Part shown: piece after piece, positions 1 through 313 of the stretch
Layout of the letters: each line of letters starts with the position of its first letter
Numbering within the stretch: position 1 is the first letter of the stretch
Source: Escherichia coli
GTDB lineage: Bacteria; Pseudomonadota; Gammaproteobacteria; Enterobacterales; Enterobacteriaceae
Reading direction: 5' to 3' (one strand)
Assembly (NCBI RefSeq): GCF_003334255.1
Contig: NZ_QOWU01000266.1
Length of the DNA stretch: 313 nt
The notes under the pieces: model-generated
Databases searched by the model: none
Told to the model about the DNA's origin: nothing
Seen by the model: the letters and a program-made list of their open reading frames with translations, nothing else
Translations under genes and position numbers: made by a program

Positions 1-2
1 TG

Positions 3-313
3 TCAGTATGCGCGCTGGAACAGCCCGATGCCTTCATTGTCATTTGTCGACGTAATTTCATTACACACCATCCATGACCCCGGAACTGAGGATAGGTTGC
101 CGTCAATGCCATCGGTGTTAGCTTTCATATAGTTTCCGTTTTCGTCTTTGATTAGGGCGCATCGCTTAAGGCGTGAACCCGATACAGTTTCTCCTGGCTG
201 ATAGGTTCTGCCGATGTCGGTTATATACGGGCCTAGTGCGGCAATAATGTATGTTCCGATGCTGTAAATTTCCCCGGGTACCAGCCTTCCGGTTGGCCCT
301 TGTGGTCCCTGTG
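3..313 (-). CDS. C-terminal fragment of a collagen-like-repeat protein, probably a fibre or receptor-binding protein (prophage tail-fibre-like or C1q/BclA-like); 5' end lies outside the window
   Basis: Seen in sequence: reverse-complement frame 3 is open for 102 codons from forward 311 down to 6, with a TGA stop on forward 3-5 (forward tca). Forward 312-313 are the last two bases of a further upstream codon (NCA: Pro, Ser, Thr or Ala). All other frames are interrupted: minus frame 1 by TAG after 26 codons, minus frame 2 by TAA after about 46 codons, forward frame 1 at 130-132, forward frame 2 at 53-55, forward frame 3 after about 24 codons. Translation: QGPQGPTGRLVPGEIYSIGTYIIAALGPYITDIGRTYQPGETVSGSRLKRCALIKDENGNYMKANTDGIDGNLSSVPGSWMVCNEITSTNDNEGIGLFQRAY*. 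Frequent CCG, CTG and GGC codons fit a ~50% GC host. The product call is inference from domain layout, not from a recognised homologue. Confidence 0.75.
   Translation of the reverse strand, partial: QGPQGPTGRLVPGEIYSIGTYIIAALGPYITDIGRTYQPGETVSGSRLKRCALIKDENGNYMKANTDGIDGNLSSVPGSWMVCNEITSTNDNEGIGLFQRAY
282..313 (-). other. Collagen-like Gly-X-Y triplet run at the window edge (GPQ-GPT-GRL), likely the C-terminal end of a longer triple-helix region
   Basis: Seen in sequence: Gly at every third residue for three consecutive triplets, with Pro in the X position twice, then the periodicity breaks at VPGEIY. Only three triplets are visible because the window ends here, so extension upstream is inference. 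Confidence 0.45.

Follow-up and report, generated by a model that had tools for sequence, protein, structure and literature searches.

Probable distal end of a collagen-stalked tail fibre of temperate Escherichia coli phages and its co-inheritance with part of a DUF4376 chaperone

Introduction

The collagen-like proteins EPclA to EPclD are side-tail-fibre proteins of Escherichia coli prophages (Ghosh et al., 2012, PLoS One 7:e37872, PMC3368898). They are built of a PfN domain, a coiled coil (PCoil), a collagen region and a C-terminal domain, which is PfC (PF06820) in EPclA and EPclB and a different one in EPclC and EPclD (PMC3368898). EPclA forms a dumbbell-shaped trimer, and its PCoil and PfC each trimerise, while EPclC ends in a domain called PfC2 that has no homology to PfC and has a PCoil that is short or absent (PMC3368898). 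Accessory side fibres are likely to bring faster adsorption or a wider host range (PMC3368898). Immunolabelling located ORF67 of Sp5, a collagen-like fibre of the 933W/Sp5 type (EPclB), at the end of the tail, and the protein is essential (PMC5155283). A cryo-EM preprint on phi24B described the same fibre layout with a small C-terminal globular domain, and a preprint on phi24B gp61 doubted the role of this protein in triggering DNA release and questioned the proposed BamA receptor.

A second line of work concerns the proteins that assist fibre assembly. DUF4376 proteins are tail-fibre chaperones, whose helical core trimerises like an intramolecular chaperone and whose beta-strands pair with the fibre head (PMC10579305). 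In this study, we analysed a stretch of 313 nucleotides of E. coli DNA (hereafter, the window) and compared its gene, its neighbours and its encoded domain with these systems. The window likely encodes the tip of a tail fibre that is trimeric, has a collagen stalk and belongs to temperate E. coli phages, and we propose a mechanism for its assembly, host contact and exchange.

Results

Reading frame of the window

Six-frame translation gave a sole open frame, which lies on the minus strand, runs from position 311 to a TGA stop at 5-3 and has the translation QGPQGPTGRLVPGEIYSIGTYIIAALGPYITDIGRTYQPGETVSGSRLKRCALIKDENGNYMKANTDGIDGNLSSVPGSWMVCNEITSTNDNEGIGLFQRAY, followed by the stop. Read on this strand, positions 270-313 encode ..Q GPQ GPT GRL VPG E. 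A preliminary description had placed the junction between a collagen-like repeat and a globular C-terminal domain here, with the right coordinates and peptide and the strand left unnamed. The Gly-X-Y register stops at 282/281, where the next expected Gly is a Val (281-279). The wording of the description, with the ORF leaving at VPGEIYSIG, is imprecise; the register stops there, but the ORF runs on for 92 codons after the break and terminates within the window.

Four parts can be assigned, all on the minus strand. According to the translation, the triplet count of the full-length gene and Pfam Collagen, positions 282..313 carry the last collagen-like triplets of the fibre shaft, namely the end of a Pro codon (313-312), a Gln codon (311-309) and GPQ GPT GRL (308-282). 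The complete 92-residue non-collagen C-terminal end domain, VPGEIYSIG...GLFQRAY, occupies 6..281 in the translation, and the TGA stop of the fibre gene 3..5; the matching coding sequence in the prophage of strain EC2 (locus L001) ends at 15311. Positions 1..2 are the first two bases of a 19-nt spacer ahead of a DUF4376 chaperone gene that lies outside the window, the next coding sequence in L001 starting at 15331. Only three full Gly-X-Y triplets are inside the window, which by themselves are not beyond chance. The number of GPQ triplets just before the junction varies between copies, with GPQGPQGPT in the copy of the window (294-311, minus strand) and GPQGPT, one fewer, in L003.

No repeats or terminator were found in the window, and a PADLOC search found nothing. 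One antisense sigma-70-like match on the plus strand at 106-133 (ATGCCA, 16 nt, TATAGT) is at chance level, with 1 match against 0.3 expected. The short plus-strand ORFs of the window were set aside as by-products of the minus-strand gene.

Full-length fibre gene

Six complete E. coli chromosomes, among them that of strain EC2 (L001 14103-15311), carry a 402-aa gene whose 3' end agrees with the window at 100% identity; the gene is already annotated as a prophage tail fibre. The encoded protein consists, in order, of a PF08400 N-terminal domain, a short coiled coil, 58 Gly-X-Y triplets and the 92-residue end domain. PF08400 (prophage tail fibre N-terminal) matched residues 1-134 (E = 1.5e-42). 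The triplets extend over residues 136-310 in runs of 19 and 39, with one extra Gly between the runs, and the single break, GDPGGPPG, is the G-X-P-G-G-P-X-G interruption of E. coli prophage collagen-like proteins. Pfam Collagen (PF01391) matched twice (E = 1e-8 and 2e-8). The upstream extension, which the preliminary description had called for, thus confirms the collagen periodicity, with 58 triplets in a gene whose 3' end is identical to the window. The best PHROG matches were all tail fibre families, with phrog_366 at the top (E = 5e-110). Together with PF08400 and the collagen region, these matches bear out the earlier suggestion of a collagen stalk followed by a C-terminal head as in enterobacterial prophage tail fibres.

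Compared with versions of 493-523 aa (e.g., L002 10740-12311), the EC2 fibre lacks a Pf2-type non-collagen interruption and part of the collagen, and it has one long Col region. Across loci, fibre sizes range from 402 to 705 aa, and the differences in collagen length are multiples of three residues. To judge from these sequences, such variation would fit recombination or slippage inside the repeats.

Genomic setting and distribution

In EC2 the gene lies in a lambda-like prophage adjoining btsSR, in the order tape measure, M, L, K, I, J, lom, fibre and DUF4376. Inspection of the neighbouring genes, which the preliminary description had advised, thus showed a lambda-like tail module in which the fibre follows J and lom and is itself followed by a tail-fibre assembly gene. 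The same order was found in the cultured phage PhiR5_1, where the fibre has 523 aa and the next gene is annotated as tail fiber assembly protein. Within the tail cluster of the EC2 prophage, between the small 'phage tail protein' gene that comes after the tape measure, at the gpM position, and the gene for minor tail protein L, there is a gene annotated as porin OmpC (L001 6078-7241), which is an unusual spot for a phage-borne porin.

The end domain is narrowly distributed. Of 50,697 phage records, just 8 carry it, and each of these is a PhiR5 or PhiR12 phage; a full-text literature search on these phage names returned unrelated papers only. Among complete E. coli genomes, 28 of 5,426 contained the end-domain region, and plasmids gave no match to the window. 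In those 28 genomes the end-domain DNA was present at 86 places, with a median of 3 and a maximum of 8 per genome; in one IMG genome (643348545; L006-L008 and L015), four prophages carry the end domain. The multi-copy pattern suggests spread or gene conversion among the prophages of one genome, as reported for EPclA in O157:H7.

Downstream of the fibre and chaperone genes of L001 we also observed a gene for a YadA-like trimeric autotransporter of the Eib type (16386-17633). It recurs in L002-L004, L007-L010, L012 and L018; with L001 included, it is present at 10 of 10 loci with at least 2.6 kb of downstream sequence, and it is missing at the two examined loci whose fibre has a different tip. 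Such a gene downstream is what we would presume to find in P-Eib prophages. It may be a lysogenic-conversion gene that travels with the tip block.

The preliminary description had left it undecided whether the gene belongs to a prophage, a tailocin or a cell-surface adhesin. That the gene encodes not a phage virion protein but a tailocin fibre, or a collagen-like surface adhesin comparable to Scl, BclA or Lcl, might be argued from the nearby YadA-like adhesin gene and from the NCBIfam models SclB, Lcl and SclA, which match the Gly-X-Y region. However, these matches cover collagen repeats only and reach 137, 99 and 93 bits where the cut-offs are 325, 500 and 400, and what stands at the N-terminus is PF08400 rather than a signal peptide or an anchor. 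Moreover, the gene lies within complete tail modules adjoining head genes, and the PhiR phages that carry it are cultured, plaque-forming and grown on E. coli C and K-12. An adhesin or a tailocin fibre is thus barely credible. Of the options first raised, a virion-associated protein is the one that held, with the same gene present in the cultured Escherichia phages PhiR5_1 and PhiR12_x. Likewise, of the examples that had been listed, the prophage tail fibres are pertinent, but BclA, Scl and C1q are mere analogies, with the NCBIfam scores below cut-off and no Pfam match of the end domain to the C1q domain at E<=10.

Downstream chaperone and the shared block

A DUF4376 gene follows directly downstream in 16 of 16 end-domain loci with sequence there, and DUF4376 maps to residues 72-180 of the chaperone (E = 3e-19). 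Over residues 1-75, the identity is 95-100% in every one of the 16 loci. The full-length DNA of this gene (tfa) was found in 29 genomes, as against 153 for its 3' 59%, which corresponds to the DUF4376 part. Fibres with a PfC-like tip have a partner chaperone that shares the DUF4376 half but is unrelated in its N-terminal half. The G+C content is 65-75% in the collagen region, about 50% in the end domain, about 45% in the N-terminal part of the chaperone and about 57% in DUF4376.

Strain DETEC-S792 holds exact copies of the window in two prophages, one lambda-like and one 933W-like. The former has the order K, I, J, fibre and tfa, and the latter has an N4-gp56-type capsid gene and a fibre of 677 aa, matching 933W L0121 over its N-terminal half and followed by tfa; the DNA common to the two loci is limited to the part from the distal collagen to the end of tfa. 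The N-terminal half of the 933W type is fused to the end domain of the window in L004, L011, L012 and L016. On IMG/VR contigs, a P2 gpH-type fibre located after the baseplate genes V/W/J/I ends in 20 triplets and the same end domain, and its homology to the EC2 fibre begins about 16 triplets before the junction. The same end domain is thus borne by lambda-type PfN, 933W L0121-type and P2 gpH-type fibres, which belong to long, short and contractile tails.

The inherited unit is a block made up of the distal ~16 triplets, the end domain and the N-terminal ~75 residues of the chaperone. Its flanks are common to other fibres; on the upstream side these are collagen and Pf2-type repeats, and on the downstream side the DUF4376 core. 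The linkage between the end domain and the chaperone N-terminus could reflect physical adjacency and not functional co-adaptation. In the P2 gpH-like fibre of L013 (2669-4276), we further noted a globular-looking segment rich in Trp and Tyr, at about residues 340-415 counted from MTQKYKT, ahead of the 20-triplet collagen; it looks as if the collagen-plus-tip block had been added onto an existing distal domain.

In the EC2 copy of the chaperone gene (L001 15331-15905), one base pair is missing at nt 399 in comparison with the intact L003 copy, and the reading frame is shifted as a result. This copy may be non-functional, and the fibre of the exact-match locus may not be assembling.

Relatives and structure of the end domain

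The 92-residue end domain matched no Pfam family even at E<=10 and no NCBIfam model, and searches of the PDB by sequence and by profile gave chance-level matches only. In the PHROGs there were weak matches only, to phrog_17472 (E = 5e-4) and phrog_366 (E = 0.027). A word-indexed search returned partial E. coli proteins only, with 91-100% identity. HMMER over 1.84 billion representative proteins found near-identical copies (at least 91%) and six weak matches (E = 1e-8 to 6e-4), which are large tandem-repeat proteins, probably Ig-like, without a clear Pfam family of their own. Each of these scores is built up from many matches of 5-10 bits, one repeat after another, the repeats being near-identical and centred on a 'KDxNGN' motif. 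They were set aside as homologues; from these sequences one might take at most a weak hint of a beta-sandwich in the end domain.

AlphaFold2 did not fold the end domain. A monomer, computed from a 7-sequence alignment, reached a pLDDT of 37.6, and a pseudo-trimer of three copies with Gly-Ser linkers reached 36.6, both unusable. The low-confidence monomer model is all-beta.

One alternative is that the end domain serves as an intramolecular chaperone and is removed by cleavage once the trimer has assembled, as happens in K1F endosialidase or the L-shaped fibre of T5; the mature fibre would then end at the collagen. Intramolecular chaperone domains sit C-terminal after trimeric shafts, and a C-terminal domain of about 90 residues behind such a shaft is in the usual position. 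Domains of this kind have been discussed along with the DUF4376 proteins (PMC10579305). However, the C-terminus of the fibre gave no match to Peptidase_S74 or any other Pfam family at E<=10, a separate trans-acting DUF4376 chaperone resembling the intramolecular ones is encoded immediately downstream, and the low-confidence monomer model is not of the alpha-helical type. We regard cleavage as very improbable.

Relatives of the end domain are all at least 91% identical, and the copies compared position by position at least 93%; these vary at positions 16, 17, 20, 34, 43, 47 and 48 of 92 and in isolated single changes. Such uniformity is unusual for a receptor-binding tip under host selection and counts against our explanation. 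It also speaks for a second alternative, in which the end domain is solely a folding and registration nucleus and a docking site, and the DUF4376 protein stays in place as a cap that contacts or masks the receptor. The strict linkage of the N-terminal part of the chaperone to the end domain also speaks for a cap, as do reports that DUF4376 chaperones co-purify with fibres and were proposed as transient 'chaperone caps' in Alteromonas phages, and that Tfa of Mu stays on the fibre tip (PMC10579305). In contrast, the N-terminal part of the chaperone is equally conserved (95-100%), and conservation does not separate the two readings; furthermore, the chaperone gene of EC2 is frameshifted. On this evidence such a cap seems unlikely, and we retain the reading of the end domain as the distal tip of the fibre.

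Discussion

The architecture of the fibre agrees with that of EPclC. The full-length protein shows three features of the EPcl group, namely PF08400, an extended (Gly-X-Y)n region that includes the G-X-P-G-G-P-X-G break, and a location in a prophage tail module. The EPclC proteins (ECED1_1681 and ECED1_2081 of E. coli ED1a, and ORF-401 of P-EibA) are alike in the order of PfN, short coil, Col, Pf2-type interruption, Col and a non-PfC end, as well as in the break; the EC2 copy differs in having 402 aa, a single long Col and no Pf2 interruption. The non-collagen residues of the end-domain fibres are 135 + 58 + 92, and the fibres of L007 and L008, with 493 aa and collagen of 106 and 102, correspond exactly to the EPclC entry ECED1_1681 in Table 3 of Ghosh et al. 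By the match in lengths alone, that paper printing no PfC2 sequence, the fibre probably has the EPclC architecture and the end domain is probably PfC2.

EPclA and EPclB (ECs2717; 933W L0121, Sp5 ORF67 = ECs1228 and phi24B gp61) agree with the fibre in the layout of PfN, coiled coil, collagen and end domain and in the genomic slot. However, their end domain is PfC, to which the domain of the window is unalignable; BLASTP against the 933W PfC domain gave no alignment at E<=100, and PF06820 matched neither the full-length fibre nor the end domain. In 933W, moreover, a small PfC-like ORF stands after the fibre gene in place of a DUF4376 gene.

Lambda Stf and Tfa share with the locus the N-terminal family PF08400 and the order J, lom, stf, tfa, with an assembly chaperone after the fibre, and the role is likely the same, that of an accessory fibre for faster adsorption or an extended host range. 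In contrast to the fibre of the window, Stf has neither a collagen shaft nor such an end domain, and Tfa of lambda belongs to the Caudo_TAP family (PF02413), whereas the partner here is DUF4376. The fibre heads of the Alteromonas phages V22 and A5 are likewise paired with a downstream DUF4376 chaperone, and there too the fibre-plus-chaperone module is common to morphologically different phages (Gonzalez-Serrano et al., 2023, PMC10579305). These phages differ in that their hosts and shafts are unrelated, with knob domains and not collagen, and their head domains have no sequence similarity to the end domain.

In lambda-like phages the fibre is a side tail fibre in the Stf position, and in 933W-like and P2-like phages it is a tail fibre. 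The position of the gene, the order of the domains and the co-inheritance of tip and adaptor were observed directly in the loci compared. By analogy with the DUF4376 chaperones of Alteromonas phages (PMC10579305), we infer the steps of folding and receptor contact as follows. The tip-specific N-terminal part of the chaperone would bind the end domain. Three chains would be gathered by the DUF4376 core, which in characterised relatives is made of alpha-helices and trimerises. The end domain might then fold as a C-terminal trimer nucleus that fixes the register of the chains, allowing the collagen to zip towards the N terminus, starting at the C terminus. In the finished virion, this domain would be the distal knob that touches a receptor on the host surface. 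The doubts raised about phi24B gp61, a related fibre, are a point against our explanation. The repetitive collagen DNA and the conserved DUF4376 half may serve as homologous recombination arms for exchange of the block, and a swap between phages of different tail types would change or share the host range.

A bolder proposal, which we offer tentatively and consider possible but doubtful, is that the end domain represents a previously uncharacterised fold or receptor-binding family that is apparently confined to E. coli prophages. It may have a dedicated N-terminal adaptor on a generic DUF4376 chaperone, and the collagen linker, tip and adaptor would then form a self-contained, portable host-range cassette for virions with long, short and contractile tails.

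Nothing in the finding is unexpected. The protein is a known, annotated kind of prophage tail fibre, the architecture of which was published in 2012, and it has long been established that unrelated phages exchange tail-fibre modules. The remaining interest lies in the tip domain, which is narrowly distributed, uncharacterised and accompanied by a matched chaperone. In pathogenic E. coli, many lambdoid and Shiga-toxin prophages have collagen-stalked fibres, which help to set the strains that these phages can reach. Because the end domain comes with a matched chaperone module and is already in use on three tail types, it would be a convenient unit for identifying the receptor or for retargeting phages and tailocins.
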